64,000 nucleotides of DNA from a virus (lineage: Duplodnaviria; Heunggongvirae; Uroviricota; Caudoviricetes), in IMG/VR virus record IMGVR_UViG_3300028734_000016; one strand, written 5' to 3'. The notes under the pieces were generated by a model that was given only the letters and a program-made list of their open reading frames with translations, was not told the DNA's origin and searched no databases. Made by a program: the position numbers and the translations under genes. Position 1 is the first letter of the stretch. Each line of letters begins with the position of its first letter. Below, in pieces: positions 8,146 to 62,960 of this stretch.

Positions 8146-8249
8146 ATTATTTTTTATTTTATATATAAAAAATTCTATGACAAAAAGAATAAAAATTGAA
8201 CATATTTTTAAATAAATTGTATCATAATGATTAATCATTGAATATATTG

Positions 8250-8337: not shown

Positions 8338-8346
8338 GATTTTTTG

Positions 8347-8433
8347 TACCGATGACGGGACTTGAACCCGTATAAGCATATAGCTTGCAAAATTTTAAGT
8401 TTTGAATGTCTACCAAGATTCCATCACATCGGC
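8347..8433 (-). tRNA. tRNA-Leu (anticodon TAA), type II, A73
   Basis: anticodon stem CAAAA/TTTTG loop CTTAAAA; ~16-nt variable arm; T-arm ACGGG-TTCAAGT-CCCGT. Confidence 0.85.
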
Positions 8434-8441
8434 ATATTTTG

Positions 8442-8521
8442 TACTCCTAGAGGTATTCGAAACCTCATCCAAATGGACATCATCTTAAGTGATGCGTGTA
8501 TACCAATTCCACCATAGGAGC
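8442..8521 (-). tRNA. tRNA, anticodon TAA (leucine-type) with only ~11-nt variable region, A73
   Basis: acceptor GCTCCTA/TAGGAGT, Leu-like D-loop GGAATTGGTATAC, anticodon stem CATCA/TGATG loop CTTAAGA, T-arm GAGGT-TTCGAAT-ACCTC. Confidence 0.6.
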
Positions 8522-10875: not shown

Positions 10876-11211
10876 TTAGACTTCTTTTGTGTCATCTTCT
10901 TTTATGTCAGTTTCTTTTGTTTCAGTTGAACCATCTTCCATGATATTATCTAGTTTAACTAGTTTTTTTGGTTTCCAAATAAAATAGAAGAGACTTGAAG
11001 CTGCAATAACAGAAAAGAAATATATCACATTAATAATATCAACTGCTGAATTTTGAGTTTTTAATTCATAAATTGCGTTGTCATCAGTGAATTGCTGTGC
11101 TGCTATTTTTGAATAGTCTTGTGTATTCTTATTGATTACCAATTTGTATGATGCTCCAAGGCAAATCAAAAGAATGAAAACTAATAATGATTTTAATATT
11201 TTACTTTTCAT
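10876..11211 (-). CDS. small membrane protein (N-terminal hydrophobic segment plus internal TM), possible NfeD-like partner of the upstream SPFH protein
   Basis: hydrophobic stretches LLVFILLICLGA and VIYFFSVIAASSLFYFIW; sits immediately downstream of the SPFH gene. Confidence 0.5.
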   Translation of the reverse strand: MKSKILKSLLVFILLICLGASYKLVINKNTQDYSKIAAQQFTDDNAIYELKTQNSAVDIINVIYFFSVIAASSLFYFIWKPKKLVKLDNIMEDGSTETKETDIKEDDTKEV

Positions 11212-12170
11212 TATCGTTTTGCTTTTGTTGTGCTAGTGTTCATACTTTTCAAGCCATATAATTCAAGCATTGAAAAATTTCCACCTGCAATAGTAAGATT
11301 ATCAGGTACTTGAAGCTTACCATTTTTTACTGCTTCAGCAAATGCTAATTTTATTGCGATATCTGCATCAAGGTGACTCTGTGCTTCAATGGAAGCTTTT
11401 GCTTTGGCAAATTTATTAGCTGCAATTACCTTATTCTCAGCAGTTTTAATATTCATTTCAGACGAATATTTTTCATTTATTGCACTTTGAATACTAGGAT
11501 TAGAATATGTAAATTGTCCAGCAGAACCAATGTTCATAATTTTTATACCATATAATGCAAAATGTTCTGTTACGTCTTTTGACATTTGAGAGAAAATAGC
11601 ACTTCTATCATTCTGTCCTTGTGTTAAATTTCTATCACCAAATTGGGTAGTTAAACATTTTTGGACGTATCCCCTAACATCAGTATCCATCAAATCTGCT
11701 AACGTTCTTCCACTATATGAATATAAAAATAGTGATGTCCAATCATCTGGAATTGAAGCTGTTGCTGTTATACAAACTGAAAATCCAATTGATTCTTTTG
11801 ACTCTACTTCAATTGCTTCATTTGATGTTTTATTTGAACCACTTCCTGAACCATTCCATTCACGTGTAACAGGAGTACGGTCAACAGTAATAACTCTAAC
11901 TGATGGAATCCATTCACCACTATTTGACATCCTGCCTGTTTTGTGCCATTGAGTTGGAATGTAAATACGTTTTGCAATTACTTTGTTTTGTTCAAGATAA
12001 GCTTGTGATTTCAATTTAGTTTGATTGACTTGTGTGCCATTTTCCAATGGGATCACATAAACAGATTCATTAGGTTTAATCTCTTGGTACTTTTGTACCT
12101 GATAAGGTTTCATACAAGATGACATCAATGCTACTACGAGCACACATACTAAAATCAATTGTTTTTTCAT
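11211..12170 (-). CDS. SPFH/band-7-like lipoprotein
   Basis: lipoprotein-type signal MKKQLILVCVLVVALMSSC; A/K-rich C-terminal helical region typical of SPFH; tracked ORF start (12254) judged an upstream extension. Confidence 0.65.
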   Translation of the reverse strand: MKKQLILVCVLVVALMSSCMKPYQVQKYQEIKPNESVYVIPLENGTQVNQTKLKSQAYLEQNKVIAKRIYIPTQWHKTGRMSNSGEWIPSVRVITVDRTPVTREWNGSGSGSNKTSNEAIEVESKESIGFSVCITATASIPDDWTSLFLYSYSGRTLADLMDTDVRGYVQKCLTTQFGDRNLTQGQNDRSAIFSQMSKDVTEHFALYGIKIMNIGSAGQFTYSNPSIQSAINEKYSSEMNIKTAENKVIAANKFAKAKASIEAQSHLDADIAIKLAFAEAVKNGKLQVPDNLTIAGGNFSMLELYGLKSMNTSTTKAKR

Positions 12171-12221
12171 ACTTTTTTTGTTTTTGTTTTTAATAATAAT
12201 TAATTTTGTTTTTAATTGAGA

Positions 12222-12231
12222 TACAAAGATA
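12222..12231 (-). promoter_or_regulatory. TAtcTTTGta box upstream of the SPFH lipoprotein gene
   Basis: ~50 nt upstream of the ATG at 12170. Confidence 0.45.
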
Positions 12232-12300
12232 CTTCGTTTATTTGAATTTACCAAACTTATTTATGATTATTTTATATAATAAACAAAATAAACATATTAA

Positions 12301-14115: not shown

Positions 14116-14634
14116 TTATAAATCTCTATTTAATTTATCAAGTTTAATTTTTCTGACTTCTTTTATAGTATCACTATATGAAAGATTGTTTTTACGTTCA
14201 GTCCAAACTCTATTTTTAATATTATCTCCTGAATTGTCATAGCATGATTTGCATATAATAGAAATCCAACCTTTTGTTGAACCAATATCTTCAGTAGAAC
14301 CACAAAACTCACAAACACTACCAGACATATTTTCTGTCATACTTATCATACCATCAATCTGTGAATTGCCTCCATAATAATAGAAACAAAGAATTCCAAA
14401 TTTTTCTTTTACTTGTGATGCTACAACTTGCGGAATTTTTTCATCATCAGATAAAAACTTATTATTAGTATCTATATAACTTTGAATAGAATAGCATAGT
14501 TGATCTAATAACCAAAACCATCCATCACCATGTTCAAACCCCCAACACATTGCAGTCTTGGTCATATTTTCATACCGATTTACAAAAATTTTAGGATATT
14601 TTTCAACTAAATAGCTATCTAAATTTTCAGTCAT
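14116..14634 (-). CDS. hypothetical protein, immediately downstream of clpP
   Basis: 172-aa ORF abutting the clpP stop. Confidence 0.55.
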   Translation of the reverse strand: MTENLDSYLVEKYPKIFVNRYENMTKTAMCWGFEHGDGWFWLLDQLCYSIQSYIDTNNKFLSDDEKIPQVVASQVKEKFGILCFYYYGGNSQIDGMISMTENMSGSVCEFCGSTEDIGSTKGWISIICKSCYDNSGDNIKNRVWTERKNNLSYSDTIKEVRKIKLDKLNRDL

Positions 14635-14635
14635 A

Positions 14636-15391
14636 TTATTTTACTTGTTTAAATACATATTTCATATAATATTCATCAAAACCATCCATCATAGTTGTAA
14701 TTGAATTGGATTTATTATCAGCTAATCCAATGACATTATCTATCAAACCATAATTCAAAGCTTCATCAGAATTTAACCACATATCTCTTTGACAAAAATC
14801 ATGAATTTCTTCAAATGACTTGTCAGTATTAAGAGCAAGAATTTTGAATAGTAAAAAATTGTATTTTTCAGTTTCCATTTGACTAATACGAGTATCATCT
14901 ACTTTGCCACTAGTTCCTGCTGCAACGTGATGTAGCATAACTGTTGAATTAATTAATGATGAACGCTTACCTTTTGCTCCAGATGATAGAAGTACACTAC
15001 CCATTGAAGCGCACATTCCTAAATTGACTGTGGCTACATTAGGTTTAATATAGTTCATAACATCTATGATTCCTAACCCATGAGTCACACTACCGCCTCC
15101 TGTATTAATTTGCATTGTAATGTCCTTTTGAGGATCAGAATCTTCTAAATATAATAATTGTGCTTGAATAATATCAGACATTGTATCATCAACGTCACCA
15201 GACACCCATAAAATTCTATCCATCATAAGTCTATCAAACACAGATAGTTGAGTTACATTCAATTGTCGTTCTTCTAAAACATGAGGAGATAAGCCATAAT
15301 TTTCAGCTTGATATTTTGTTGCATCATCTACTAATGTAGAACTCATTCCTAAATGTTTGGTAGCAAACTTTTTAAATTCATTTTTGTGCAT
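14636..15391 (-). CDS. clpP: ATP-dependent Clp protease proteolytic subunit ClpP
   Basis: GMCASMGS (Ser), MLHHVAAG (His), ILWVSGDVDD; full-length canonical ClpP. Confidence 0.9.
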   Translation of the reverse strand: MHKNEFKKFATKHLGMSSTLVDDATKYQAENYGLSPHVLEERQLNVTQLSVFDRLMMDRILWVSGDVDDTMSDIIQAQLLYLEDSDPQKDITMQINTGGGSVTHGLGIIDVMNYIKPNVATVNLGMCASMGSVLLSSGAKGKRSSLINSTVMLHHVAAGTSGKVDDTRISQMETEKYNFLLFKILALNTDKSFEEIHDFCQRDMWLNSDEALNYGLIDNVIGLADNKSNSITTMMDGFDEYYMKYVFKQVK

Positions 15392-15427: not shown

Positions 15428-15436
15428 GCAAAGATA
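15428..15436 (-). promoter_or_regulatory. TAtcTTTGc box ~36 nt upstream of the clpP ATG
   Basis: plus-strand GCAAAGATA. Confidence 0.45.
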
Positions 15437-18334: not shown

Positions 18335-20218
18335 TTAATTGTTCAACATTTTTTCTAAATCTTCAACACTTAACAATTTCACTCCAATCTCTTCTGCTTT
18401 AACTGCCTTGCTTGATAAAGAATTTTTATCTTTCATAACTAAGTATGTTAAATTTTTAGATACACCAGATGCAACTTTACCTGATTTTGAAATTATGATT
18501 TCTTCTAAATCTTTTCGTCGTATTCCAGTAAAACAAAAAGACACATTTTCTAATTCGTTTGTTACCATAATAATATTTTCTTTTTTTGTTTCAATTGTTA
18601 TTTGAGGTTTATCTTGTAACCATTCATAAAATGTATCATAAGCATCAAGATATGCATGTGCAGATTTATCTGAGAATCCTTTAATTGATAGAATTTCGTC
18701 AAGTGATGGTTTACCTTCAAAATGCATTAGTAATTCAATTTTTTTACTACCAAGATTCACAAAGAAATTTGAAGAATGCATTAATTTAGATAATTTGACA
18801 TTTTTTATAGAAGATTGAATACTATTATATATAATTTCAGCCCTTCTCTCACCAAATCTATCTAATGATTCTAATTCTGATTGTGTTAATTCCAATATTT
18901 GTTTAACAGTCTTATATCCAGAGTTATATAACTGATTGATAATACCTTCTGATACATTATCAGCTTCAAGTATTTCAAAGAAAGATATCAATTTCTTAAT
19001 TTCTTGTTCTTCAGTTCCTTCAACCATTAATTCTACTTCATTTTCATTCCAGAAAACTTTTGAACTACCAAAAGTTGGCATTTCAAATCCAGTTGCAGAA
19101 ACAATTTGAACAATCTTTGGTATTACCAAACCTGACCGAATTATTTTTACAATACTTCCAACTCCTAAATCATGTTTTTTTACAAATTTATAGTTATTTA
19201 AGGTGACACGTGATACTGTAGCACCATCAATATTCACTGGAATTATTCGCCCAACTGGCTTAAGTAATCCGTTTTTCGAAACTTCTTTTACAATTTCAAG
19301 TATGGTTGTTTCTGCTGATTCTGCCCATTCAGGATTCTTATATGCTCTTGCGTATGATGGATTATTGTTAGTTTCACGACCAAGTTTTTTTCTGATGTCT
19401 TTGTCATTTATATCAAAAACAAGTCCATCAATATCATAATCTTTACCCCATTCAATAAAAATATCATTTAGCTCATCAAAATTCAAATCTTTTGCTTTGA
19501 ATATTTTGTATGGTACATTAGATAAATTAGTACTGATGAAATCTAATTGTTCAGATTTATCTTGAGTGAAATCTTCGCTTGCATAACCATAACGAATATG
19601 TTTAGCAAATTTCAAATCTTCGGATGGAGTATCAGAATTTTTAAGTCCAGCAATCATATTACGAGCATTCTTAAATGGCTTACCATTATCTCTATAAAAT
19701 ACTCTACTATTAAAAACTTGTTTTGGAAAAATCATTTCTCCAATAGTAAACAAATTAATATTTTTACTATCATCATTCAACTTTTTGTAGTGCAAATGCA
19801 TAGTTTCGCCAGTGATGCCATTTCCTCTTGACCAAGCAAGTTGTTTATATTCATCTTTAAGAATTGACATACCATCATATTTTGATGTACAAACCAATTC
19901 TGTTTCTAATGGTAACCCTTTATTTTTCAACCATTTGTGAATTTCTACAATTGTGTGATATTTATCCAATGAATACATTGGAAATTTTAAATTTTCTTTT
20001 CTGTCTGGATTGACATCTTCGCTATCTTCAATAACGCCAGATTCAAATATTTCATTATCTGGGTCTAATTTTTGAAATGTAGAAATTACTTTATCATATT
20101 CAGGATCACTGATTTCAGGTTCTCCGTCACGATATTTCTTATTTAGTTTTTTGACTTCAACTGCTGCAGACTCAAACATACCGTATTCTAATAATCGATA
20201 AATTTCTGATAATTCCAT
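18335..20218 (-). CDS. ligA: NAD-dependent DNA ligase
   Basis: N-terminal YRDGEPEISDPEYDKV, adenylation motif SKYDGMS, C-terminal BRCT-like region. Confidence 0.9.
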   Translation of the reverse strand: MELSEIYRLLEYGMFESAAVEVKKLNKKYRDGEPEISDPEYDKVISTFQKLDPDNEIFESGVIEDSEDVNPDRKENLKFPMYSLDKYHTIVEIHKWLKNKGLPLETELVCTSKYDGMSILKDEYKQLAWSRGNGITGETMHLHYKKLNDDSKNINLFTIGEMIFPKQVFNSRVFYRDNGKPFKNARNMIAGLKNSDTPSEDLKFAKHIRYGYASEDFTQDKSEQLDFISTNLSNVPYKIFKAKDLNFDELNDIFIEWGKDYDIDGLVFDINDKDIRKKLGRETNNNPSYARAYKNPEWAESAETTILEIVKEVSKNGLLKPVGRIIPVNIDGATVSRVTLNNYKFVKKHDLGVGSIVKIIRSGLVIPKIVQIVSATGFEMPTFGSSKVFWNENEVELMVEGTEEQEIKKLISFFEILEADNVSEGIINQLYNSGYKTVKQILELTQSELESLDRFGERRAEIIYNSIQSSIKNVKLSKLMHSSNFFVNLGSKKIELLMHFEGKPSLDEILSIKGFSDKSAHAYLDAYDTFYEWLQDKPQITIETKKENIIMVTNELENVSFCFTGIRRKDLEEIIISKSGKVASGVSKNLTYLVMKDKNSLSSKAVKAEEIGVKLLSVEDLEKMLNN

Positions 20219-20250: not shown

Positions 20251-20260
20251 TACAAAGATA
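20251..20260 (-). promoter_or_regulatory. TAtcTTTGta box ~33 nt upstream of the ligase ATG
   Basis: plus-strand TACAAAGATA. Confidence 0.45.
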
Positions 20261-29724: not shown

Positions 29725-29734
29725 TACAAAGATA
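29725..29734 (-). promoter_or_regulatory. TAtcTTTGta box ~26 nt upstream of the ATG at 29699
   Basis: plus-strand TACAAAGATA. Confidence 0.45.
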
Positions 29735-40004: not shown

Positions 40005-41162
40005 TTATTCGTCTATTTTTGTCTTCACATCAGCAAAGTTTAGATAAATTTTTCTATCATCTTTTATTAATGATATGACTTTAACTTTAACTTCATCTCC
40101 GACATTATATTTTTTCTCATTTCTGTTAATATATGCAGTCTGGATTAATCCAGTCGTTTCATCATCTAATGTGATAAGTGCTCCAAAGTTTTTAATATCT
40201 CTAATTTTACCAGTTAATATTTTACCAACTTTAATACTATCCCACATTGATTCTTTTAAAATTTGAGTAAGAATAATTTTATTATTTTTGATAACTTCTT
40301 TGACATAAAACTCAATTGTCATACCAGGCAAAATTTCATTCCATTTATTTTGCCATTTCTCGCCAATATTAGCTTTGTGAACCATACCTGTTAAACAATT
40401 AGGACCATTTTCAGTAGCTTTGAATTGTACAAAAACTCCAAAAGGTGTTGTTCCTGTAATAATTCCTTGATATGTAATATCATGCTTCAATTTTCGTACT
40501 TCATCTGGAATTAATGATTGTAAATATTTCTTTCTTGATACTACATAAACGCCTTTTTCTTGCTGTAATGTTTCTAGCATTACTTCAAATGTCATACCTA
40601 ATATAGATTCAGAATCTGTTAATTTATTTACATCTGCTAACGTATTAGGCATAAATGCTTCAATTCTAACATTATCCATAAGAATATCCATCATATAACC
40701 TGCTGGTATCATTGATTTAACTTCTGAGATAAGTGGTAATCTTTGTTCATAATATTCTTTCATTTTATTATGAACATTTTGCTTAATGAGTTCTGTGATA
40801 GAACCTTTAATTAGGTAAGGTTTTTCTGAAACAGAAGTAATTAACACATCAATTGAATCACCAACCAATAATTCTGTTATAACTGTATTCAATTTTGGTT
40901 TTTCTACGTAGATAAAATCTTTAAATCCAAAATCAATTAAGATTTCTTTTTGACTGATTGATGATATTGTACCAGTAACAACTTGATTTTCTTTAATCTC
41001 TTTTATACCTGATAAAGACATTTCCATCTTTTCATACATATCTCTATATTCTTGATTCAAATCACCAGAACTTTTTACTTTTCTGATTTTATTATTTGTC
41101 AATTCTGGAAATGGATCAGGTAAACTACCGATATTCACACCTACTATTAATTCTGTATTCAT
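40005..41162 (-). CDS. ribosomal protein S1-like protein with ~4 S1 RNA-binding domains
   Basis: S1-type segments VVTGTISSISQKEILIDFGFKDFIYV, GIITGTTPFGVFVQF, ILTGKIRDIKNFGALITL, VGDEVKVKVISL. Confidence 0.75.
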   Translation of the reverse strand: MNTELIVGVNIGSLPDPFPELTNNKIRKVKSSGDLNQEYRDMYEKMEMSLSGIKEIKENQVVTGTISSISQKEILIDFGFKDFIYVEKPKLNTVITELLVGDSIDVLITSVSEKPYLIKGSITELIKQNVHNKMKEYYEQRLPLISEVKSMIPAGYMMDILMDNVRIEAFMPNTLADVNKLTDSESILGMTFEVMLETLQQEKGVYVVSRKKYLQSLIPDEVRKLKHDITYQGIITGTTPFGVFVQFKATENGPNCLTGMVHKANIGEKWQNKWNEILPGMTIEFYVKEVIKNNKIILTQILKESMWDSIKVGKILTGKIRDIKNFGALITLDDETTGLIQTAYINRNEKKYNVGDEVKVKVISLIKDDRKIYLNFADVKTKIDE

Positions 41163-47206: not shown

Positions 47207-47932
47207 ATGTCTATATTCAATACATTATTAAATAACTCACCAGGTGAACTTTCACATACTTCAACTTCACCTACATCAGATAAATACAGCAAAAAAGAAG
47301 TGTCTTTCTCAGAATTTGAAACACCAATAGATGGAACTACAGCAACAGCGACATGTCAATTAAGTTCATTAATTACATCAAGTGCATCAATTGGATTATC
47401 TAATTCATATATGTATGGATCAATTGACACGTCTAGTGTTAGTTCTAATCCATATTATTCAAATATTTATAATGGAAATTATAATGGAAATTATATTGGA
47501 AGTTTTACATCTAATATGTGGAAAACATCAGAAGAATTGAATCAATTGGAATCAATGAGTTATATTGTTGATTTTGAATTAGATGATGGATCACTATCTA
47601 AATCATTATGTGAAATAACTGATAACTCTTTTATATTTGATTGTAAAATGGATGGAAATAGAATTCAGCCATATGAAAAATTAATGGAATTGATAAATGA
47701 TAAAATTAAAATGTCTGTTAAAATAGAAATTTCGGATGTATTGACATTACACTATACAAATTTACAATTCACAAAAATTGAAAACAATTTCAAATTCAAA
47801 AACGGTTATTGCAGTCTAAGCAAATTGAAAGTTAATTTTAAGTTTGAACAAGTATTATATGAAAATGAAAAACTGTCGATAAAAGAAAAAAGAGCAGATA
47901 AACTAAATAACATATTAAAAAACAATGAGTAA
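47207..47932 (+). CDS. hypothetical protein
   Basis: 241-aa ORF. Confidence 0.55.
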   Translation: MSIFNTLLNNSPGELSHTSTSPTSDKYSKKEVSFSEFETPIDGTTATATCQLSSLITSSASIGLSNSYMYGSIDTSSVSSNPYYSNIYNGNYNGNYIGSFTSNMWKTSEELNQLESMSYIVDFELDDGSLSKSLCEITDNSFIFDCKMDGNRIQPYEKLMELINDKIKMSVKIEISDVLTLHYTNLQFTKIENNFKFKNGYCSLSKLKVNFKFEQVLYENEKLSIKEKRADKLNNILKNNE

Positions 47933-48539
47933 TACAAATAAAACAATTGAGGAATTTGATAATGTAATAAGTATTTGTTCAAATATTTATATGAAGAAAA
48001 TGAAAGATTATGGCGCATCTTGGAGAATTTTAAGACAAAAATCTGTCACAGATCAAATATTCATAAAAGCGAGACGAATTAGAAGTATAGAAACTAAATT
48101 AGATAAAAAAATTGATGAAGGAATAAATTCTGAGCTAATAGCAATTGTGAATTATGGTATAATGGGGCTAATTCAATTAGAACTTGGATATTCTGATTCA
48201 GATGATTTATCATATGATAAAGGTATTGAATTATATACTAAATATATACAGAATGCTAAAGAATTGATGCTAAATAAAAATCATGATTATGATGAGGCTT
48301 GGAGAACAATGAGAATGGAATCATACACAGATTTAATTTTAATGAAGATTTATAGAACTAAACAAATTGAAGATAATGATGGAAAAACTACAATTTCTGA
48401 AGGTATAGATGCAAATTATTTTGATATGATTAATTATGCTATATTCGGATTAATTAAGCTTAACGAACATGATGAAATACTAAAAAATAAAATAACAAAA
48501 ACTACTGAAAGACCTAAAATTAGAATAATACCAGAATGA
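47925..48539 (+). CDS. hypothetical protein with two homologous halves (SWRILRQKSVTDQIFIKARRIRSIE / AWRTMRMESYTDLILMKIYRTKQIE)
   Basis: internal duplication in the translation. Confidence 0.55.
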   Translation: MSNTNKTIEEFDNVISICSNIYMKKMKDYGASWRILRQKSVTDQIFIKARRIRSIETKLDKKIDEGINSELIAIVNYGIMGLIQLELGYSDSDDLSYDKGIELYTKYIQNAKELMLNKNHDYDEAWRTMRMESYTDLILMKIYRTKQIEDNDGKTTISEGIDANYFDMINYAIFGLIKLNEHDEILKNKITKTTERPKIRIIPE

Positions 48540-48621: not shown

Positions 48622-49725
48622 TTAATTTTTAAGCATGTGAGCCAATTCAATAGTCATTGCTATACTCCAACTTAGAGGATTATTATCATTTGGAGTTTTT
48701 GTTCCATGATAATACAATTCGGGTATTTCATAGTCAATAGATTCATTTACAATTTTTTCATAAAAATATTTTGCTTTCTCTTTTTCCCCTAATTGACAAT
48801 ATATTAAGCCTAAATAGCTTAGTCCGAATAACCAAGTTGCTTCGCCATTTGTGTTATAATATTTATCATCTAAATATCTATATACTCCATTCTCATCTAA
48901 TAAATTATCCTCTATATTTTTTAATATAGTTTTTGACATTTCTACAGTTAATAAATTAAATGGATAGATAAGAAATAATTGAGCTAAATCATATTTTCGT
49001 GTTGGTGTTTCATTTGGTAATATACCATTCAATGTTTCAATACCATTTTCTATTAAATGTTCAGGAATATTGACGTCAATTTTATCACACATTTTAATTG
49101 ATGTTAATCCAGCAACAATCACTCCAATAGTAGATGCTCTTGGCGCCTCTTTACCTTCTTCCCATGCACCAGATTCTGGTACAGTATGATAATCAATAGC
49201 ATCTAATAATTTAATCACAGTTGATATAATATCGATGTCAGTTTTATCTCTAATTATATTTAACCCATTTTTTTCACCAATAGCTATTCCATATAGAAAA
49301 TATCCTATTTGATCAATTTGAATATGATTCCAACCAGAATGAATTTCTGTTAAATCTATATTTATTCTTGGATTTGGAAATTCCCAATCAAAATCTATTT
49401 TTTTCTTATTGATTAGAGATGAAAATTTTCCATATTGTGTTTCAATATTTTTATAATAATCTAACCAGGTTTGATATGTTTGAATATATTTTTCTGTATC
49501 ATTCCACAATTCTGGAAATGAACAAAAAAAATTATCTCTCAACCAACTATAACTATAATCGTTAGAAACTGATGCTTTATAAAAACCATTAGGTAATCTT
49601 AACTTATGTAAAACCTCAAATAAATTTTTGATATCTAAATCTAATAATGTATTGTAAAAGTCATTATATTTTTTACTGGTTTTAAATTTTCTTTGAAAAT
49701 ATATTCTATAATGTTCATCTGACAT
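48622..49725 (-). CDS. glycoside hydrolase family 15-like (glucoamylase-type) protein
   Basis: SWLRDNFF and PESGAWEEG motifs resembling GH15 W-x-RD and catalytic WEE segments. Confidence 0.5.
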   Translation of the reverse strand: MSDEHYRIYFQRKFKTSKKYNDFYNTLLDLDIKNLFEVLHKLRLPNGFYKASVSNDYSYSWLRDNFFCSFPELWNDTEKYIQTYQTWLDYYKNIETQYGKFSSLINKKKIDFDWEFPNPRINIDLTEIHSGWNHIQIDQIGYFLYGIAIGEKNGLNIIRDKTDIDIISTVIKLLDAIDYHTVPESGAWEEGKEAPRASTIGVIVAGLTSIKMCDKIDVNIPEHLIENGIETLNGILPNETPTRKYDLAQLFLIYPFNLLTVEMSKTILKNIEDNLLDENGVYRYLDDKYYNTNGEATWLFGLSYLGLIYCQLGEKEKAKYFYEKIVNESIDYEIPELYYHGTKTPNDNNPLSWSIAMTIELAHMLKN

Positions 49726-49845
49726 ATTTTTTGATATTTTTTTATGATAATTACTTAATAAATGTTAAATATTATATATAAAAAAATCATTTAATTTTTT
49801 AACAAAAAAGCCTCTGATTATCAGAGGCTTTTATCAAAATATATG

Positions 49846-50151
49846 TTATCTCAATTTTCTTAATATTTTTGTTAATTCTGTTATTATTCCAGAATGATCT
49901 GTTGATATTATAACAAGTGAGTCATCTAAATATGAAGTAATATAACTAACATAATTATATTCATTGTATGTCATTTCAACATCACCAAGTATGTCAGTAT
50001 TAAATAGAATATTTTTATTATTGTCAATAATGTTAATTATTGTCATTTCTTCTATTTTCATTTCACTATTAAGAAATATTTCTATGTTATCTTTATTTAA
50101 GATAACATAGAATATTTTATCATTAACATTTAAATTTTTCCATGTAATCAT
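49846..50151 (-). CDS. hypothetical protein downstream of the Clp ATPase
   Basis: 101-aa ORF. Confidence 0.45.
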   Translation of the reverse strand: MITWKNLNVNDKIFYVILNKDNIEIFLNSEMKIEEMTIINIIDNNKNILFNTDILGDVEMTYNEYNYVSYITSYLDDSLVIISTDHSGIITELTKILRKLR

Positions 50152-50153
50152 TA

Positions 50154-52682
50154 TTAAACTTTAGTATTTTCTGTCAATATGTTACCATTCTTAATTTCGT
50201 TATTTGAAATTTTAAAGATTTTAACTGAAGAACTTTCTTTATCATATATCAATGATAATGTATCACCAACTGATATTTCTTGATCAATAATAGCATCAGT
50301 AAGTTTATCTTCAATATTACTCTGAATGACTCTCTTTAATGGTCTTGCACCATAATTTTCATCATAACCATTTTCAAATAAATAATCTTTAAGTGATTGA
50401 GATATAATTACATCATATCCTTTTTCTTTAAGATTTGAAATTAAAGATTTACATTCAACATCAACAATGCTACAAATGTTTTCTTTACTCAAAGAATTGA
50501 AATTGATAACTTCATCTACACGATTTAAAAATTCAGGACTAAAAACTTTTTCTAATTCTTTTTTAAGAACTGAATTTTTAGAGTCTTGATTATTTTTATT
50601 AAGTCCAAATCCAATACCAGTACCAAAATCTTTCAATTTTCGTGAACCAGCATTTGTTGTCATAACAATAATAGTATTTTTAAAATCGACTTTACGTCCA
50701 TTACTATCTGTCAATACACCATCATCCAACACTTGAAGAAGGATATTTTGAACATCAGGGTGAGCTTTTTCAATTTCATCAAGAAGAATAATAGAATAAG
50801 GCTTACGTCTAACTGCTTCAGTTAATTTACCACCATCTTCATATCCAACATATCCAGGAGGTGCTCCTACTAATCTAGATACTGAGAATTTTTCCATAAA
50901 TTCACTCATATCAATTCTAATCATAGCATCTTCAGAACCAAATAACTCCTTTGCCATAATTTTAGCAAGATATGTTTTACCTACTCCAGTAGGTCCTGAG
51001 AAAATAAATGTGCCAACTGGTTTATCATGACTATTTATACCAACTCTTGATCTCTTAACTGATTGAACTATTTTGTCAACTGCTTCATCTTGTCCAATAA
51101 CAATAGTTTTAACTTTATTAGCCATATATTTAAGCTTATTGTTTTCATCAACAGAAACATTATCTACAGGTATTTTTGTTATAAGAGCAACAACTTCAGC
51201 TATATCCTGTTGTGTTACCAAAGGACGATTATCAGAATGTGATTGACTCCATGTTTCTTTTTCAGTTTCAAGTTCAGATTTCCATTGTTTTTCATTATCT
51301 CTATGTTCAGCAGCAATTTCATATTTCTGATTTGAAATACAATCAAGTTTTTCCACAATAGATATTTTTATTTTTTTGCTGAGTTCAACAATTTTTACAG
51401 GAATAGCACTTGTACCATTAACGTGAACCATAGCGCCAGCCTCATCAAGAACATCAATTGCCTTATCTGGAAAGAATTTTTCTGATATATATTTACCAGA
51501 CAAATTAACACAAGCTTCTAATGCATCATCAGTATATGTAACTTTGTGATGATCTTCATATTGTTTTTTTATATTTTTCAGAATTTCTAAAGTTTCTGAC
51601 TTACTGGTTGCCTCAACAACAACTTTCTGAAATCTACGTTCTAATGCAGCATCTTTTTCTACATACTTACGATATTCTTCAAGTGTAGTAGCACCAATAC
51701 ATCTAAATGTACCTCTTGCTAATCCTGGTTTCAACATATTGGAAGCATCGAGTGAACCTTGGGCTGAGCCAGCACCTATAATAGTATGAATTTCATCAAT
51801 AAAAAGAATAATGTCAGGATTTTCTTCCATTTCTTTGACAATACCTCTTAATCTTTGTTCAAATTCACCACGATATTTAGTTCCTGCTACTAAAGAACCC
51901 ATATCAAGAGTAATAATTTTCTTATCCTGTAAATTTTCAGGAACAAGTCCATCTACGATTAACTGAGCCAATCCTTCTACAATAGCAGATTTTCCTACTC
52001 CAGGTTCTCCTACCAAAACAGGATTGTTTTTCTTACGTCTTGATAAAATCTGTGAGATTCTTTTAATTTCATCTGCACGTCCTACTACTGGATCAAGTTT
52101 ACCTTCTTTTGCAAGATTGGTCAGATTTGTACCAAATTGATCAATCAATTTAGTTTTTGATTTGCTCTTTCCTTTTACTTCTTGTTCTTGTTCTTCGTCC
52201 ATGTTACTATTTTCTAATTCATCATTAATATTAAGTTCATCTTCTTCATTTTTTAATTTGTTTTTTAAACTTCTTAAAATTTCAGGTGATTTATTAAATA
52301 AATCTGAAACAAGGTTATTATTATTATCCAATATTGCATAAAAAACATGCTCAATACAAACTTCATCTGAGTCCATTGATTTGGCAAAAACCACAGATTC
52401 TTTTAGAATTTTTTCAGTTTCTAATTCTAATGGAATAGAAGCATTCTTTCTAAGAGAATTCAAACCATTCTGTTTTTGTAAATCTTTAGACCAATCACGA
52501 ATTGTTGATTTGATAGCATTAATATTGAGATTTAAATCTCTCATTATATTAGATGCTTCAGAATATTCCTCATCTATCATTGCTAAGAATAAATGCTCAG
52601 GCCTGATTGTGTTAGATTGAATAATAATTGCAATTCCCTTACTTAGTTTAATAACTTCTTCTACTTCTTTCGAGTAATTCAT
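50154..52682 (-). CDS. clpC: ClpA/ClpC-type AAA+ unfoldase (two Clp_N repeats, D1 and D2 ATPase modules, short middle region, IGF-type ClpP-docking loop)
   Basis: [15 protein letters not shown] + ILFIDEIH (D1); [15 protein letters not shown] + [14 protein letters not shown] (D2); GTGIGFGL loop. Confidence 0.9.
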
Positions 52683-52686
52683 AGGC

Positions 52687-52965
52687 TTAATTAATTTTAT
52701 TATTGTTATTTGTTATGTTATTATATTTGACAATTTCTCTCATTAATTGAAATTTCTTAATTTTCAATTTTTCGCCAATAGTCATTGAAATCAATAAAAA
52801 TGGTAAGTATAATATTAAAGCGAAAATAAAAATGTACAAATTATATGTCCATTCTAATAATGTCATAAATGGAATTGCCCATTTTTTATAAATATCACCA
52901 CTTTTATTTTTTAATATAAAAGTAGTATAAATATACAAAATATAATCTATTGTATTTTTTTTCAT
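52687..52965 (-). CDS. small two-TM membrane protein between clpS and the Clp ATPase
   Basis: 92-aa ORF with hydrophobic segments. Confidence 0.45.
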   Translation of the reverse strand: MKKNTIDYILYIYTTFILKNKSGDIYKKWAIPFMTLLEWTYNLYIFIFALILYLPFLLISMTIGEKLKIKKFQLMREIVKYNNITNNNNKIN

Positions 52966-52966
52966 T

Positions 52967-53260
52967 TTATTGTTCTATTGTGAGAGATAATCCTTTCTCT
53001 TCTAATAATTTTTTGTAAGGCTCCAATGATTCTTTTGAGCCAGTTTTAATAATATCTTTACCTATAAGATGAACATTATAAGCTGATGCTTGACCTCTTT
53101 CAAATGAAAATTTTAAATATGCCATTAGACAAGTTATTACCCATTCGAATGAATTCACATCATCATTCCACAATATTAATTTATACTCTTCTTCAGTATT
53201 ACTAGAAATACCATTTTCTGATAAAATGTCTTCCAATGATTTTGTTTTTATTTTCTCCAT
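52967..53260 (-). CDS. clpS: ClpS-like N-degron adaptor
   Basis: YKLILWNDDVNSFEWVITCLMAYLKFSFERGQASAYNVHLIGKDII matches the ClpS core. Confidence 0.75.
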   Translation of the reverse strand: MEKIKTKSLEDILSENGISSNTEEEYKLILWNDDVNSFEWVITCLMAYLKFSFERGQASAYNVHLIGKDIIKTGSKESLEPYKKLLEEKGLSLTIEQ

Positions 53261-53468
53261 AACTTATTATATATGTATATACTTTACTATATAGTTTATT
53301 TAATTATCTATTGTAATTGATAGTGCAAATTTACAACATTTTTTCCTAATAACAAAACATTTTATGATATTATTTCAATAATATATTCAATTGTCTGATT
53401 ATAAGTAAAATTTATACTAAATATATCACAATATGAATCACTCATAGTTATATTTACTGCTTGTCCTG

Positions 53469-54010: not shown

Positions 54011-55651
54011 ATGAGTTTAATTTTAAGACAACAAAAAGGAGAAAGATTAACTATAACCGAAATGGACGGTAATTTTTCATATTTAGAATCTCTATCTGGC
54101 ATTTCTCACACATCAGGAACAAATGGAAGTTCAGGAACAAATGGAAGTTCAGGAACAGATGGAACATCAGGAACAGATGGAACATCAGGTACAAATGGAA
54201 GTTCAGGAACAAATGGAAGTTCAGGAACAAATGGATTAAGTGGAGATAAATATACTACATTTTCGAATAATACATTAGAAATATCAACAGGAGGTACAAT
54301 ATCATTTTTTGTTGAGCCTAATTTATCATTATCTACAGGACAAGATATTATAATAACACATGACTCATCAAATTTAATGATAAATTATATATTATCATAT
54401 AATAAAATAACAGGTGAAATATTTTCAAATATTACTTCATCTATTGGTAGCGGAACATATAATTTTTGGAATGTATCATTAAATGGTGCTCCTGGTCCTT
54501 CAGGAATAGATGGAACATCAGGAATAGATGGAACATCAGGAATTTCAGGAACAGATGGAACATCGGGAAGTTCAGGAACAGATGGAACATCAGGAATAGA
54601 TGGAACATCAGGAATAGATGGAACATCAGGAATAGATGGAACATCAGGAATAGATGGAACATCAGGAACGAATGGAACATCAGGAAGTTCAGGAACAGAT
54701 GGAACATCAGGAACGAATGGAACGTCAGGAACAAATGGAACGTCAGGAACAAATGGAACATCAGGAACAAATGGAACATCAGGAAGTTCAGGCACAAATG
54801 GAACATCAGGAACGAATGGAACGTCAGGAACAAATGGAACGTCAGGAACAAATGGAACATCAGGAAGTTCAGGCACAAATGGAACATCAGGAACGAATGG
54901 AACGTCAGGAAGTTCAGGAACCAATGGAACATCAGGAAGTTCAGGAACCAATGGAACATCAGGAAGTTCAGGAACAGTATCATTAAATGGTACAACGAAT
55001 TATGGACTACTTACATTAAATGTATCATCTCCAAATGTAAATGTTGAAAGTGGATTAACATATCATAATTCATTATTAAATTTAAATGGTAATTTAATAT
55101 TACCAAAGTTGTCAGGAACAGGTATAATGATAGACAATACAACACCGACATTTGGATATAAAGATTTAATCGGTCAGATAATACCAAGGGTTGGTGGATC
55201 TACTGCTCCTTCATTATCACCGTTAAGAGGAACTAATATACTTAATTATACATTTCAAGTTAATGATAAGATAGATAATATTACATATCATATGCCACAT
55301 GATTATTTACCAAACTCTGATATATATTTACACACACATTGGAGTCATAATGGTACAGCAATTTCAGGAACATTTGCATTAAACTATTATGTAAATTACA
55401 GTAAAGGTTATAACCAATCAGGACAAACATTCAATTCTGAATTGACTATACCACAAACAATTTCTGTAACAGGAACAACAGATCGTCCAAGATGGGGACA
55501 TTTTATAGATGAAATCAAATTAAGTAATATAGGTGGAGATTCAACTCATTTAAATACATCATTATTAGAAATTGATGGAATTATTGAAATTGCATTAAAT
55601 GTAAATAGTATACCTACTATAACAGGGGTACAACAACTAATCCATTTATAA
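54011..55651 (+). CDS. collagen-like repeat protein (two G-T-S-G-x-x-G blocks) with a non-repetitive C-terminal domain; fibre/fibril candidate
   Basis: 546-aa ORF; preceded by (AAAAAACATT)x3. Confidence 0.8.
   Translation: MSLILRQQKGERLTITEMDGNFSYLESLSGISHTSGTNGSSGTNGSSGTDGTSGTDGTSGTNGSSGTNGSSGTNGLSGDKYTTFSNNTLEISTGGTISFFVEPNLSLSTGQDIIITHDSSNLMINYILSYNKITGEIFSNITSSIGSGTYNFWNVSLNGAPGPSGIDGTSGIDGTSGISGTDGTSGSSGTDGTSGIDGTSGIDGTSGIDGTSGIDGTSGTNGTSGSSGTDGTSGTNGTSGTNGTSGTNGTSGTNGTSGSSGTNGTSGTNGTSGTNGTSGTNGTSGSSGTNGTSGTNGTSGSSGTNGTSGSSGTNGTSGSSGTVSLNGTTNYGLLTLNVSSPNVNVESGLTYHNSLLNLNGNLILPKLSGTGIMIDNTTPTFGYKDLIGQIIPRVGGSTAPSLSPLRGTNILNYTFQVNDKIDNITYHMPHDYLPNSDIYLHTHWSHNGTAISGTFALNYYVNYSKGYNQSGQTFNSELTIPQTISVTGTTDRPRWGHFIDEIKLSNIGGDSTHLNTSLLEIDGIIEIALNVNSIPTITGVQQLIHL
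54470..54970 (+). repeat. coding 9-nt G-x-x collagen-like repeat block (second block; first at ~54100-54240)
   Basis: antisense ORFs 54385-55047 are repeat artefacts. Confidence 0.8.
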
Positions 55652-56517: not shown

Positions 56518-59500
56518 TTAATAAACTAATTCTAAGTGAGAAACTAATTCTTCGTCTTTATCAACTTCAATTGATGCATCAAAATTTATACTATGCACCT
56601 GTTCAATAATTACAATTTTATTTACTTTATTTTTCAACTCATCAATAAATTCTAAAAATTGCTGAACAGATTTTGTTTTTTTACCATCAATTAATTTACC
56701 CATAATTTCATCCAATACAATAAACGTAGATTTTGATTTGACATTTATTTGTCGTAATGCTATCTTCAATGCAAGAGCACAAAATGTTCTTTCTTTTCCA
56801 GAACTTTCAATTGCATTTTGACTGGAATCTAGCCTATCATCTGCACTAAGCCTTAAATTTAAATTATCATCAAAAAATAATGTAAAATTAACATTTATTA
56901 ATAATTCATTCAATTCTTTATTAATTAAATGAATAGACTTTTTCAATAAAAAAGTAGGTAATCCATCACGACTAATACATTTTTGATACTCCTTTAATAA
57001 CTCATCTTTTTTCTTTTGTTTTAAATATTTTTTTATCTTAGTTGAAATTATAAAAATATCATTTTCTTTGAGTATAATATTTTTTTCCATTTCTATATTT
57101 ATTTGTGATAAATTTTTTATTTGTTCTTTAACGACTTTAATATTATTATCCACATCATCTATTGATAATTGAATAATTTTATTTTCATCTATTTTAACTT
57201 TATATTCTTGATATTTTTCTATTTCTAATTTTAGTTCTTTTATTTTAAAATTAAAATTTTCGATTGATAAAATAATATTATCTCTATTTGACATTTTTCT
57301 GTTTCTTAACTCAAAATTATCTTTCTTAGTTTCCTCAATTGAAATATCATCATCTATACCTTCAACATTAAAATTTTTCAATTCAGACTCAATATTTTTT
57401 ATTACAATTGATGTATCTAATTTGCCTTTTTCTATGTTTTTTATTAGTTCTTTCCCTTTCTCAATATTTTCATTTAATGTTTCAGATTCATCAAATATGT
57501 TATTCTCAATTTTTTCTATTAATTTATTTAAATCTAAATTGTCTTGAGTCAACTTCTTACTGCTACCAATTTCTTTCAATTTAGATAATATATCATCAGG
57601 GTATTCTCCTTGAATTAACCTTTTTTTCATGTCTTCCAAATTAAGAATATTTGTATTACATTCAATAGATTCATTTTTTAAATCTTTATACTTTAATATA
57701 CAATCTTTAATTATCAAAGAATTTGGTTCTTTTTTAATTTCAAGACTTTTAATTTTATCTTCTAAATGAGCTAAGTGTTCTGAATATTTTGGATCATTTT
57801 TATCATAATCTCTACCACAGCTAGGACAAGATTTTGAATTTTTGAATGTTTCTATTTCTTTATCTAATTCCTCATTTGAATTTTTAGCGTTAACTCCATC
57901 TTTTTGTAATAATTTTATATTAGATGATAATTCTTTTAAATTTAATTCTAATTCTTGAATTTCTGATGTTATTTTTTTTATTTCATCCTTTATGATATTA
58001 GATTTATTATTTTTAATAACTTCAATTTGTAAATCATTTGCATTTATTTTTGATGATATTTTTCTAATTTCAGATTGTTTTAATTCATCAATTTTAATAT
58101 TAACTTTATCTATTTTATTATCAGATTCTAATAATGAAGTTTTCAAATTTGAAATTTCATCTTTTCGTTCAGAAATTTTCAAGTTCGTTTGCTTCAATTT
58201 AATTTTATATTCATCAAGTTTAGATGAATCGAATTCAGTAGGTAATTTATCAATGTCTCTATCTAAAATTGTGCTTTGAATTTTAGATTCTTCAATTTTA
58301 GATTCATAATTGTTGATGGTATTCAAATTTAAATCTTCATTAAAAGTTAACATTGATAAATCAATATTATTTAATTTTTTATTTAAATTATCTCTATCTG
58401 TATTATAATCAGATAATTCTTTTTCATGCTTCTCAATATCAGAATTATTAGTATCAATAATATCTTTAATATCAATAATTTCAGTATTCAATTCTTTCAC
58501 ACGAGATTCAGAATCTTGAATATTTACTATTAATTTTTCTTCTACTAATTCTTTTTTATATTCTTTAAATTCATTCAATTTAATTTCAAAAATATCATAA
58601 CCAGCATCTCTGATGATGTTATCCATAAATACACTTCTATTTTCTGATAATAAATCATTTAAATTATCAGCATTAGTGAATGACAATCTAATAAAATCTT
58701 TCAAATCTCCTAAAATAGAGTCCAATTCTTTTTGAGTCTTAGCTTTAATTTCATCTGTTAATTTATTTTCTTCACAAATATTCTCGCTTTTATAAAAATC
58801 CAATGATGTAGGACAGCTTGTTAATGCCGTGTGATTCTTATTCCAAACTCTTTCTGTCTTTCTCTGAATAACGAATTTATTACCATTTGAATTAATAATT
58901 GCACCACCATTAACATAATCTAAATCTCTTTTGTTATTTATATATCTTGAATCTCCAAATTTTTCAGGACTTAATGTTGTCGTAGTCTTACCATAAAGAA
59001 TATAAGTAAGTGCATCTAAAATAGTTGTTTTACCTTCCTGATTTTCTCCATGAATTTGTACAATTCCATTAATATCAGCCCAATCTATAACATTATCATC
59101 TCCATAAGATTTAAAATTACTAAACCAGAATTTATCAATACTCCATTCAGTATTTTTTAAGCATTCTACCAATTGAACTCTACTATTTATTATATCATCA
59201 ATTTTAAGAATAGATTCAATATCATCTTTTTTGTATTTTTGCTCTTCTAAATATTCATTAAATATTTCTTTCTGTGTTTCAGTATCAGTCAAATCAATTG
59301 ATTCTGATAGCATTTTTGATGATAATATATCTGTGTATAAATAAACTTTTTCAAAAATAACTTTAGTTGTGCTAAATTTATTTTTAATATAATCTCTTAT
59401 TTTCTTTTCATTAACAGTATTTATAATTGATGAATATTCTTTCCAATGAACTTTAATTTCAGTATCTGTTCCAATTTTATCAGCAGACAAATTTAAATTG

Positions 59501-60273
59501 TCATAATCTGATGATTCATCAATATAAAGATTTATGAAAGTGTGTTCATTGTCAATATCATATTCAGTGACATCAAAATCTGATGGTGATTTTATATCCC
59601 ATAATAAAAAACCATGATTTTCAATTGTTTCACCATATGATTGTTGTATAGTTGAGCCACAATATGCAGCAGATTTATCATTTCTTAAATACTGACGCTT
59701 GTGGATATCACCTATTAGCACAAAATCATTATTATTAAAATAATTCATATTTTTGTACTTGTTTGCATCATTAAAAACTTTACCAGTATTTGATGTTACA
59801 TTTAAAACTGGGTCATGAAATAACCCAATATATATTTTACCATCATATTTTTTAATATTTTTCCATGGATCGTTGTCTTTATCTGAGTGTTCATAAACAA
59901 CCCAAACAAAATTGTTATCTTGCTTATCATCATAAAATCCAGTTTTATCATAATAAGTAACATTTGGATTATTCATTAGTTTAACTACAGTTTCTATGCT
60001 GTCGATTCTATTTAAATTTTTCTTACGAATATCATGATTACCACGAACTATTATAACTTTAGCAATTTTTGATAATTCATTTAAGAAATTTCCAGCTATA
60101 ATTTCAGCTTCATTTGAAATTTCAATATAACTTTCAAATAAATCACCAACAATAACAATTCTATCTGGTGTAATTTTGCGTAATTTTTTTATTATTTTTT
60201 GAAAAATATCATTATATTCTTCATGTCTTTCAAGGTTTCTAATGTGAACATCAGCTAAGTGAGCAATTTTCAT
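56518..60273 (-). CDS. fused SbcD/Mre11-type nuclease + SbcC/Rad50-type ATPase, single 1251-aa polypeptide
   Basis: N-terminal phosphoesterase motifs HLADVH, VGDLF, RGNHD, IGDIHKRQ; Walker A GENQEGKTT; long coiled coil with CPSCGR zinc hook; C-terminal SSGKERTF...IVLDEIMGKLID and VHSINF. Confidence 0.85.
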   Translation of the reverse strand: MKIAHLADVHIRNLERHEEYNDIFQKIIKKLRKITPDRIVIVGDLFESYIEISNEAEIIAGNFLNELSKIAKVIIVRGNHDIRKKNLNRIDSIETVVKLMNNPNVTYYDKTGFYDDKQDNNFVWVVYEHSDKDNDPWKNIKKYDGKIYIGLFHDPVLNVTSNTGKVFNDANKYKNMNYFNNNDFVLIGDIHKRQYLRNDKSAAYCGSTIQQSYGETIENHGFLLWDIKSPSDFDVTEYDIDNEHTFINLYIDESSDYDNLNLSADKIGTDTEIKVHWKEYSSIINTVNEKKIRDYIKNKFSTTKVIFEKVYLYTDILSSKMLSESIDLTDTETQKEIFNEYLEEQKYKKDDIESILKIDDIINSRVQLVECLKNTEWSIDKFWFSNFKSYGDDNVIDWADINGIVQIHGENQEGKTTILDALTYILYGKTTTTLSPEKFGDSRYINNKRDLDYVNGGAIINSNGNKFVIQRKTERVWNKNHTALTSCPTSLDFYKSENICEENKLTDEIKAKTQKELDSILGDLKDFIRLSFTNADNLNDLLSENRSVFMDNIIRDAGYDIFEIKLNEFKEYKKELVEEKLIVNIQDSESRVKELNTEIIDIKDIIDTNNSDIEKHEKELSDYNTDRDNLNKKLNNIDLSMLTFNEDLNLNTINNYESKIEESKIQSTILDRDIDKLPTEFDSSKLDEYKIKLKQTNLKISERKDEISNLKTSLLESDNKIDKVNIKIDELKQSEIRKISSKINANDLQIEVIKNNKSNIIKDEIKKITSEIQELELNLKELSSNIKLLQKDGVNAKNSNEELDKEIETFKNSKSCPSCGRDYDKNDPKYSEHLAHLEDKIKSLEIKKEPNSLIIKDCILKYKDLKNESIECNTNILNLEDMKKRLIQGEYPDDILSKLKEIGSSKKLTQDNLDLNKLIEKIENNIFDESETLNENIEKGKELIKNIEKGKLDTSIVIKNIESELKNFNVEGIDDDISIEETKKDNFELRNRKMSNRDNIILSIENFNFKIKELKLEIEKYQEYKVKIDENKIIQLSIDDVDNNIKVVKEQIKNLSQINIEMEKNIILKENDIFIISTKIKKYLKQKKKDELLKEYQKCISRDGLPTFLLKKSIHLINKELNELLINVNFTLFFDDNLNLRLSADDRLDSSQNAIESSGKERTFCALALKIALRQINVKSKSTFIVLDEIMGKLIDGKKTKSVQQFLEFIDELKNKVNKIVIIEQVHSINFDASIEVDKDEELVSHLELVY

Positions 60274-62952: not shown

Positions 62953-62960
62953 TATCTTTG
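62953..62960 (+). promoter_or_regulatory. plus-strand TATCTTTG box ~30 nt upstream of the ATG at 62990
   Basis: TTTTTTGTATCTTTGCG. Confidence 0.45.

Follow-up and report, generated by a model that had tools for sequence, protein, structure and literature searches.

The 64,000-nucleotide (nt) stretch of the IMG/VR virus record IMGVR_UViG_3300028734_000016 analyzed here, hereafter the window, derives from a huge tailed phage that codes for counterparts of the three components of a bacterial N-degron protease: the adaptor ClpS, the AAA+ unfoldase ClpC and the serine protease subunit ClpP. The first two are specified by a compact minus-strand unit of four genes, in which an open reading frame (ORF) for a small hydrophobic protein of 92 amino acids (aa), here termed TM92, lies between clpS and clpC, and a 101-aa ORF (ORF101) comes last; clpP is found elsewhere in the window (Table 1). 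We propose, with a probability of about 0.6, that the phage runs its own autonomous ClpS-ClpC-ClpP N-degron protease from Clp genes of the host lineage, with TM92 as a clade-specific accessory. The carriage of Clp genes is in itself a known habit of large phages and is not rare; what distinguishes the clade of the window is the clpS-small ORF-clpC operon.

Components of the phage Clp system

An earlier reading made from the sequence only had matched the 97-aa ORF to the ClpS core, and its ORF coordinates hold without exception. The protein scores 56.7 bits against the Pfam ClpS model (cutoff 23), and its AlphaFold (AF2) model, built with a 29-sequence alignment (predicted local distance difference test score, pLDDT, 86), retrieves 38 PDB chains in a Foldseek search at E<=1e-3, all of them ClpS-containing (36 ClpS and 2 MBP-ClpS fusion chains). 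The model superposes on solved ClpS structures with root-mean-square deviations mostly of 0.7-1.3 Å and template-modeling scores of up to 0.93, with M. smegmatis and E. coli ClpS at the top (0.7-1.2 Å) and with Caulobacter ClpS, Agrobacterium ClpS2, Arabidopsis ClpS1 and a Plasmodium ClpS fusion among the other matches. In E. coli ClpS, Asn34, Asp35, Asp36 and His66 hold the α-amino group of the substrate. Their counterparts in the phage protein, N32, D33, D34 and H64, are invariant in 9/9 aligned sequences, including what we take to be the E. coli ClpS reference sequence, the numbering of which agrees with the solved-structure alignments. The NCBIfam ClpS equivalog cutoff is missed (45 bits vs 117), and the protein is therefore a divergent member of the family. 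As two hydrophobic positions lining the pocket are changed in the alignment with E. coli (Met40 to Phe and Met62 to Ala), its N-degron specificity may differ from that of the E. coli version.

The core of the phage ClpS is preceded by a flexible N-terminal extension (residues 1-25, pLDDT ~61-63) of the size typical for such adaptors (~20-25 residues), which is unusual in being strongly conserved only within the clade; matches to the solitary ClpS proteins of other phages mostly start near residue 25. The N-terminal extension of ClpS is the part that is handed to the pore of the unfoldase. Its co-occurrence in this clade with the small ORF and with a ClpC bearing the N-domain hints at a specific contact.

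The 842-aa ATPase is a ClpC-type unfoldase, predicted to be coupled to ClpP, with the Pfam domains Clp_N, AAA, AAA_lid_9, AAA_2 and ClpB_D2-small and a match to PHROG 4871 at 2e-258. Both Walker A/B pairs and both pore loops are present, including the motifs GEPGVGKS and GYVGY, with core residues that do not vary within the clade. Among solved relatives, B. subtilis ClpC is the best match (720 bits) and aligns over one continuous stretch (3-811), whereas ClpB (~655 bits) and ClpA (569 bits) each align in two blocks. The middle domain is short and UVR-like in ClpC and a long coiled coil in ClpB, and ClpA has none; the continuous alignment with B. subtilis ClpC spans the UVR-like motif, which reads QEFEKAASLRDTEQ in one member of the aligned pair. 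The IGF loop of such unfoldases is required solely for docking to ClpP. In the phage protein the segment FGTGIGFG (residues 686-693) aligns with the "kyVGFnv" loop of B. subtilis ClpC, and a loop of the form FG-x-G-[IV]-GF is kept, along with the Walker motifs and pore loops, in five phage ClpC homologues down to 55% identity, with G689, G691 and F692 invariant throughout the phage clade.

The two Walker modules and the ClpP-docking loop that the sequence-only reading had described in the ATPase are thus found. Its two Clp_N repeats fare less well: Pfam scores only a single stretch at 24-61, and the second repeat shows up only when the N-domain is aligned in full with residues 6-150 of B. subtilis ClpC. 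That reading had also named what would count against it: a ClpS-like ORF that does not model as ClpS, or an ATPase that belongs with the ClpB disaggregases and has lost a functional P-loop. The ORF does model as ClpS. In the ATPase both P-loops are kept, the ClpB model TIGR03346 reaches only 857 bits, in two stretches and below its cutoff of 1232, and the IGF loop is present, so that an identity as ClpB is rejected; ClpA is rejected on architecture, that is, the two-block alignment, and on a missed NCBIfam equivalog cutoff. The window was also searched for additional Clp paralogues, and none was found.

As to the origin of this ATPase, 80 clpC loci were retrieved when 185,579 species genomes were scanned. 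The top cellular ClpCs are all from Bacteroidota (48-50% identity), with Firmicutes and others at 43-47%. In a neighbor-joining tree (631 columns, no bootstrap), which bears on the phylogenetic comparison with host-lineage proteins proposed earlier, the phage ClpCs fall into a single clade inside Bacteroidota, next to Bacteroidales. This is moderate evidence that the phage ClpC was derived from a Bacteroidota ClpC.

ClpP is a 251-aa protein with a leader of ~32 residues. It matches the NCBIfam model PRK14514 over residues 4-221 with 243 bits (2.3e-72), against 68 bits (6e-19) for a head-maturation protease model. Its triad S129/H154/D203, in the GxxASMG/H/D setting of peptidase family S14, aligns with that of H. 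pylori ClpP and is present, together with the N-terminal axial-loop motif P-x-V/I-x-E, in 51/51 distinct ClpPs (50 phage relatives and that of the window), in keeping with the intact Ser/His site reported before. A 90%-identical clpP occurs on IMG/VR contigs that carry the clpS operon, at a similar distance from it. The scanned neighbors of clpP gave no capsid, scaffold, portal or other family match and are conserved only in close relatives; given these neighbors and a cellular ClpP score far above that of the head-maturation model, a role as a prohead protease is unlikely. Separately, a 172-aa ORF (14116-14634) lies 1 nt downstream of clpP, to which it is linked only in close relatives (ClpP identity of at least 72%); its product matches no family but contains a zinc-ribbon-like motif, CxxC...CxxC.

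TM92 had been read as a protein with two membrane segments. Only one segment, at about residues 40-64, passes the membrane-helix threshold (Kyte-Doolittle 19-residue maximum 2.59); the Tyr-rich N-terminal helix 2-18 falls below it, and the description with two segments is therefore not supported. The hydrophobic stretch contains an invariant Pro55, the C-terminal tail is basic, and the AF2 model consists of the helix 2-18 and a long helix 24-91 (pLDDT 82, predicted template-modeling score, pTM, 0.41). Searches against Pfam, NCBIfam, PHROGs and PADLOC gave no match. A profile search of 1.84 billion protein representatives recovered only 21 members of the family, all of 50-93 aa, and the weakest of these matches (E = 4.9e-4) is again located between clpS and clpC. 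A profile made from all members found no further match in 185 loci, bacterial ones included, and the context is clpS-ORF-clpC in every case examined. We infer that TM92 is most plausibly a clade-specific accessory of the Clp machine.

Table 1. Coordinates of the Clp genes, their key motifs and associated signals in the window
Feature	Coordinates	Strand	Details
clpS	52967..53260	-	97 aa; N-degron adaptor; Pfam ClpS (PF02617) 2.1e-15
ClpS pocket N32-D33-D34	53159-53167	-	
ClpS pocket H64	53069-53071	-	
TM92	52687..52965	-	92 aa; small hydrophobic protein; between clpS and clpC
clpC	50154..52682	-	842 aa; ClpC-type class I AAA+ unfoldase; N-domain 1-150
ClpC D1 Walker A	51987-52010	-	
ClpC D1 Walker B	51786-51809	-	
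ClpC middle domain	51285-51332	-	short UVR-like motif
ClpC D2 Walker A	50973-50996	-	
ClpC D2 Walker B	50760-50792	-	
ClpC ClpP-docking loop	50604-50618	-	GIGFG, residues 689-693
ORF101	49846..50151	-	101 aa; acidic, soluble; last operon gene; 2-nt gap after clpC
Intrinsic terminator hairpin	49803..49829	-	AGCCUCUGA-UAA-UCAGAGGCU then U6; closes the four-gene unit
Candidate -7 promoter box	53326..53333	-	TAAATTTG; Bacteroidota-type, consensus TAnnTTTG; 73 nt upstream of clpS
clpP	14636..15391	-	251 aa; cellular-type serine protease subunit; Pfam CLP_protease (PF00574) 1.7e-54
ClpP triad Ser129	15005-15007	-	
ClpP triad His154		-	
ClpP triad Asp203	14783-14785	-	
TATCTTTG upstream copies	15429-15436, 20253-20260, 29727-29734, 12224-12231	-	first copy upstream of clpP
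TATCTTTG upstream copy	62953-62960	+	
NAD-dependent ligase	18335-20218		

The clpS-small ORF-clpC operon and its distribution

The genes clpS, TM92, clpC and ORF101 are separated by gaps of only 1, 4 and 2 nt, with a 208-nt gap upstream of clpS and an intrinsic terminator at the 3' end, a layout that argues for a single transcription unit. The terminator was missed by the terminator scan and spotted by reading the sequence, after which it was folded: its GC-rich stem of 9 bp has a predicted energy of -19.7 kcal/mol (z = -5.8), and 0/200 shuffles were as stable. All four genes are under purifying selection, with ratios of nonsynonymous to synonymous substitution rates (dN/dS) of 0.08-0.43: 0.14-0.16 in clpS, 0.19-0.36 in TM92, 0.08-0.17 in clpC and 0.27-0.43 in ORF101. 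ORF101, which falls within the range covered by the sequence-only reading yet went unmentioned there although it is part of the Clp unit, gave no family in Pfam and PHROG scans and has homologues only in close relatives, that is, at loci with a ClpS identity of at least 81%.

The box TAAATTTG is tentatively the promoter of clpS; an equivalent box is conserved at three related loci (L004, L005 and L018). TAnnTTTG, which we take to be the Bacteroidota -7 consensus, is not enriched overall in the window. The variant TATCTTTG, which fits that consensus, has eight copies in the window, no more than expected by chance; five of these are intergenic and lie 35-61 nt upstream of gene starts on the same strand, including those of clpP and the ligase. 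Judged by placement only, the TATCTTTG boxes are possibly promoters for the host polymerase. A sigma-70 promoter scan of the locus was uninformative in this DNA of 23% GC (51 sites vs 49.7 expected), and a AAACTTTAT(A/T)A element conserved upstream of clpS in the relatives is not enriched in the window (4 vs 1.95 expected).

Scans of IMG/VR recovered 149 ClpS-encoding and 134 ClpP-encoding stretches of viral contigs. Among the best 80 viral ClpS loci, with neighbors counted within 4 kb, all nine with at least 63% ClpS identity carry the small ORF and ClpC directly downstream, and 71, at 37-49% identity, have neither. Five loci from other assemblies (L016, L018, L019, L021 and L102; ClpS 56-65%) show the same trio, and every locus examined with at least 56% ClpS identity has the small ORF and a full-length ClpC, with varying outer neighbors; the distant trio loci lack ORF101 and have genes for NAD salvage upstream. 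At four of them (L016, L019, L021 and L102) a nicotinate phosphoribosyltransferase gene immediately precedes clpS and an isochorismatase-type gene is nearby, where the window has small ORFs without assigned function. The clpC of L016 (5539-9084) is interrupted: two domains of the intein/homing endonuclease kind, Hom_end_hint and Hom_end, lie inside the ATPase, and the product has 1181 aa. At three further loci (L191-L193) the clpC match ends at residue 571, just past the D2 Walker A. The ClpC of L007 and of the phage genomes with LR accessions lacks the N-domain, and in one of these genomes, LR745206, ClpS is solitary.

On the cellular side, neither clpS (tblastn and a ClpS hidden Markov model) nor the small ORF was found within 4 kb of clpC at any of the 80 bacterial loci, which agrees with the earlier view that the small ORF is foreign to cellular loci. 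Since clpS does not adjoin clpC at any of these bacterial loci, we conclude that the adjacency was assembled in the phage lineage. The PADLOC defense models gave generic AAA+ matches only.

The claim that mobile elements rarely carry ClpS with the unfoldase and the protease does not survive comparison with these IMG/VR stretches and with the published jumbo phages. For Atu_ph07, a phage of Agrobacterium, ClpX, ClpA, ClpB, ClpP and ClpS have been reported, with widely spread gene numbers, from gp2 to gp708 (PMC6102473); ClpP, ClpS and ClpA are listed in a comparative survey covering 224 jumbo phages, which proposes that phage ClpS delivers targets to the host ClpAP (PMC7824862); phage G packages ClpP and ClpX (PMC12484599); and the moraphages, which infect Bacteroidota, have ClpA as a near-core gene (PMC12619734).

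Proposed mechanism and competing explanations

In the mechanism that we favor, ClpS, ClpC and ClpP would work jointly. The single transcription unit would co-produce the adaptor and the motor; ClpS would bind bulky hydrophobic N-terminal residues via its Asn-Asp-Asp/His pocket and dock on the N-domain of the phage ClpC, which would unfold the substrate using two active AAA+ rings. The IGF loops would then pass the substrate into a ClpP barrel, most likely that of the phage itself and possibly that of the host. TM92 would most plausibly place or gate the ClpS-ClpC complex at the membrane. Candidate substrates are host proteins, fragments from prohead processing and defense proteins. The sequence-only reading had suggested that one particular class of proteins is degraded in a programmed way and that the small ORF could tether or regulate the machine; both ideas are inferences.

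Several observations weigh against such an autonomous protease. No enzyme generating N-degrons (Aat/Bpt) was seen in the 64-kb window, and clpP is 35 kb away in a separate transcription unit. Relative to what we take to be the E. coli ClpP sequence, the docking pocket tentatively shows the changes Y60 to T, Y62 to Q and F112 to S, and the Tyr62 position, Gln here, is Tyr or His in most relatives. The solitary state of 71/80 phage ClpS loci means that phage ClpS evidently can work with host machinery. Finally, gene order kept within a vertically inherited phage clade does not alone prove a physical interaction of TM92 with its neighbors.

The last point leads to the alternative that survives best, in which TM92 is a functionally unrelated passenger, serving exclusion, lysis timing or signaling and kept between clpS and clpC by inheritance alone. 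The lack of homology to known adaptors or regulators, an evolution faster than that of its neighbors (dN/dS up to 0.36) and the low pTM of its model all speak for it, and we regard it as a serious contender, though with less than even odds. It has to contend with a linkage that holds without exception at ORF identities as low as 27-30% even as the flanks reshuffle, with gaps of 1-4 nt that imply translational coupling, and with the absence of the family from anywhere else in the 1.84 billion proteins or the 185 loci. A bolder version of the accessory role, namely that the TM92 family represents a novel type of Clp partner, which sits in the membrane as an anchor or gate and binds the ClpS extension or the ClpC N-domain, we consider rather doubtful. 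If true, an otherwise soluble N-degron protease would become a machine tethered to the membrane, controlled by the phage and directed against envelope-associated proteins of the host or the phage.

Cellular ClpS switches the substrate choice of its protease, and the phage ClpS could mainly reprogram or block the host ClpA/ClpC-ClpP, with the downstream phage ClpC as an independent acquisition. This would suit the ClpS loci without ClpC within 4 kb and the presence, in LR745206, LR756502 and L007, of ClpS beside a ClpC that lacks the ClpS-binding N-domain, and it recalls the delivery to host ClpAP proposed in the jumbo-phage review (PMC7824862). We nevertheless judge it unlikely: in the clade of the window, clpS is always in a tight operon with a ClpC that retains the N-domain, and it is only in this clade that the ClpS extension is strongly conserved.

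Equally improbable is a ClpC acting as a ClpP-independent unfoldase or chaperone in virion assembly or remodeling, with an unrelated ClpP that serves host ClpX or as a maturation protease: roles in assembly or as a translocase have been suggested for phage ClpA/ClpX (PMC7824862), the clpP gene is remote, its product has Gln at the Tyr62 position and its best PHROG is labeled "head maturation protease", but the IGF loop does not vary within the clade, not even in relatives without the N-domain, a co-operonic ClpS adaptor makes little sense without proteolysis, and ClpP itself has a far better score as a cellular ClpP, a retained axial-loop motif and no capsid, scaffold or portal gene among its scanned neighbors.

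The autonomous protease that we favor would have the same three parts as the ClpS-ClpC(1)-ClpP systems of actinobacteria, cyanobacteria and Arabidopsis plastids and the ClpS-ClpAP of E. coli. The phage set shares with the bacterial and plastid systems the ClpS fold with its NDD/His pocket, the ClpC N-domain, short middle domain and IGF loop, and the intact ClpP triad. It differs from the cellular versions in being encoded by a phage and in the conserved small hydrophobic ORF between clpS and clpC; in its nearest cellular relatives, those of Bacteroidota, clpS is not adjacent to clpC. The Clp sets of jumbo phages (Atu_ph07, Rak2-like phages, ClpXP of phage G and ClpA of moraphages) have, like the window, host-like unfoldases, ClpP and sometimes ClpS, but no operon of the clpS-small ORF-clpC type has been described and their hosts belong to different phyla. 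Closer are the Mahaphage-type genomes LR745206, LR756502 and LR756504 and the Lak phages, which are of the same size class and have the same predicted host phylum (ClpP 39-53%, ClpC 57% and ClpS 34-42% identical). These phages differ in having a solitary ClpS, a ClpC without the N-domain and no small hydrophobic ORF; the ClpS gene of LR745206 adjoins a 710-aa ORF, not family-scanned, that we take to be a putative terminase.

Small modulators of AAA+ proteases include CIII of phage lambda and SpoVM of B. subtilis, both acting on FtsH, and T4 PinA, which acts on Lon. TM92 resembles these in being short, helical, partly amphipathic and genetically tied to an AAA+ protease. The likeness is only a lead, as they share no sequence similarity with TM92 and act on the host FtsH or Lon rather than on a ClpC encoded alongside them.

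In cells, both the Clp proteases and the N-degron pathway of bacteria are well characterized. To our knowledge nobody has tested why large phages carry their genes. The clade of the window offers a compact, self-contained case, with adaptor, motor and protease bearing intact motifs and one extra protein, for which reconstitution in vitro is possible; it could reveal the benefit to a phage of its own N-end-rule protease and whether a small membrane protein steers the Clp machine. As it stands, it adds a documented example to the host-like proteostasis genes of huge Bacteroidota phages and leaves current understanding unchanged.

Host assignment and other genes of the window

Copies of the ClpS protein that are 100% identical to that of the window occur on contigs of up to 711,471 bp, one of which (404,781 bp) was read directly, and the contigs with identical genes come from peat and freshwater metagenomes. 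The relatives of the window are viral contigs in IMG/VR. In GenBank, the Clp genes come closest to those of three genomes of 634-642 kb labeled "uncultured phage" (LR745206, LR756502 and LR756504) and of the Lak phages; megablast of the Clp locus against GenBank phages gave no match. In one study of huge phages, all those of >634 kb were predicted to infect Bacteroidetes (PMC7162821). Because of these IMG/VR relatives, the similarity to the LR74/LR75 and Lak phages, this host prediction and the matches of an SbcCD fusion protein, we conclude that the window belongs to a huge phage and that its host is probably a member of Bacteroidota. The fusion in question is a single chain of 1251 aa (56518-60273) in which a phosphoesterase of the SbcD/Mre11 type is joined to an ATPase of the SbcC/Rad50 type. 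The relatives keep it beside the Clp operon, and jumbo phages of Tenacibaculum and Chryseobacterium share it. An origin from a giant eukaryotic virus, prompted by collagen repeats, ankyrin repeats and the 23% GC, was rejected in view of a T4 gp9/10-type baseplate domain protein (145-1956) with tail-fiber matches, bacterial-type transfer RNAs (tRNAs), the IMG/VR phage relatives and the likeness to the LR74/LR75 huge phages.

The GC content across the window is 20-30%, and ~90% of it is coding, with short genes. The baseplate domain protein also carries one collagen stretch, and long G-T-S-G-x-x repeats of the collagen type (Pfam Collagen 1.2e-31) occur in a 546-aa protein (54011-55651), probably a fiber or decoration protein, whose C-terminal domain is not repetitive. 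Endonucleases of the LAGLIDADG and GIY-YIG types are present. A cluster of four tRNA-Leu genes (6973-8521; anticodons CAA, TAG, TAA and TAA) encloses, between the first and second, an ORF for a 415-aa LAGLIDADG/helix-turn-helix protein resembling homing endonucleases (7048-8295), the start of which overlaps tRNA-Leu(TAG); an Rfam scan of the window found the four tRNAs only and no intron model in the cluster. A run of seven genes with 4-nt ATGA-type overlaps (3779-6976) starts with an NT5C-type 5'-nucleotidase and an ankyrin-repeat protein, the latter unusual in phages; Pfam gives nothing for the remaining five.

Directly downstream of the Clp operon, 48622-49725 codes for a GH15-like protein of the glucoamylase fold, which has a dN/dS of 0.06-0.08 and a weak TPR match below the threshold, and 47925-48539 for a double DUF1599 "nucleotide modification associated" protein; both genes are syntenic and strongly conserved across the relatives. 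In cells, members of the SPFH/Band-7 family, HflKC among them, are partners of the protease FtsH. The window codes for a membrane-scaffold protein of this family (11211-12254) and for a 385-aa protein with S1 RNA-binding domains (40005-41162).

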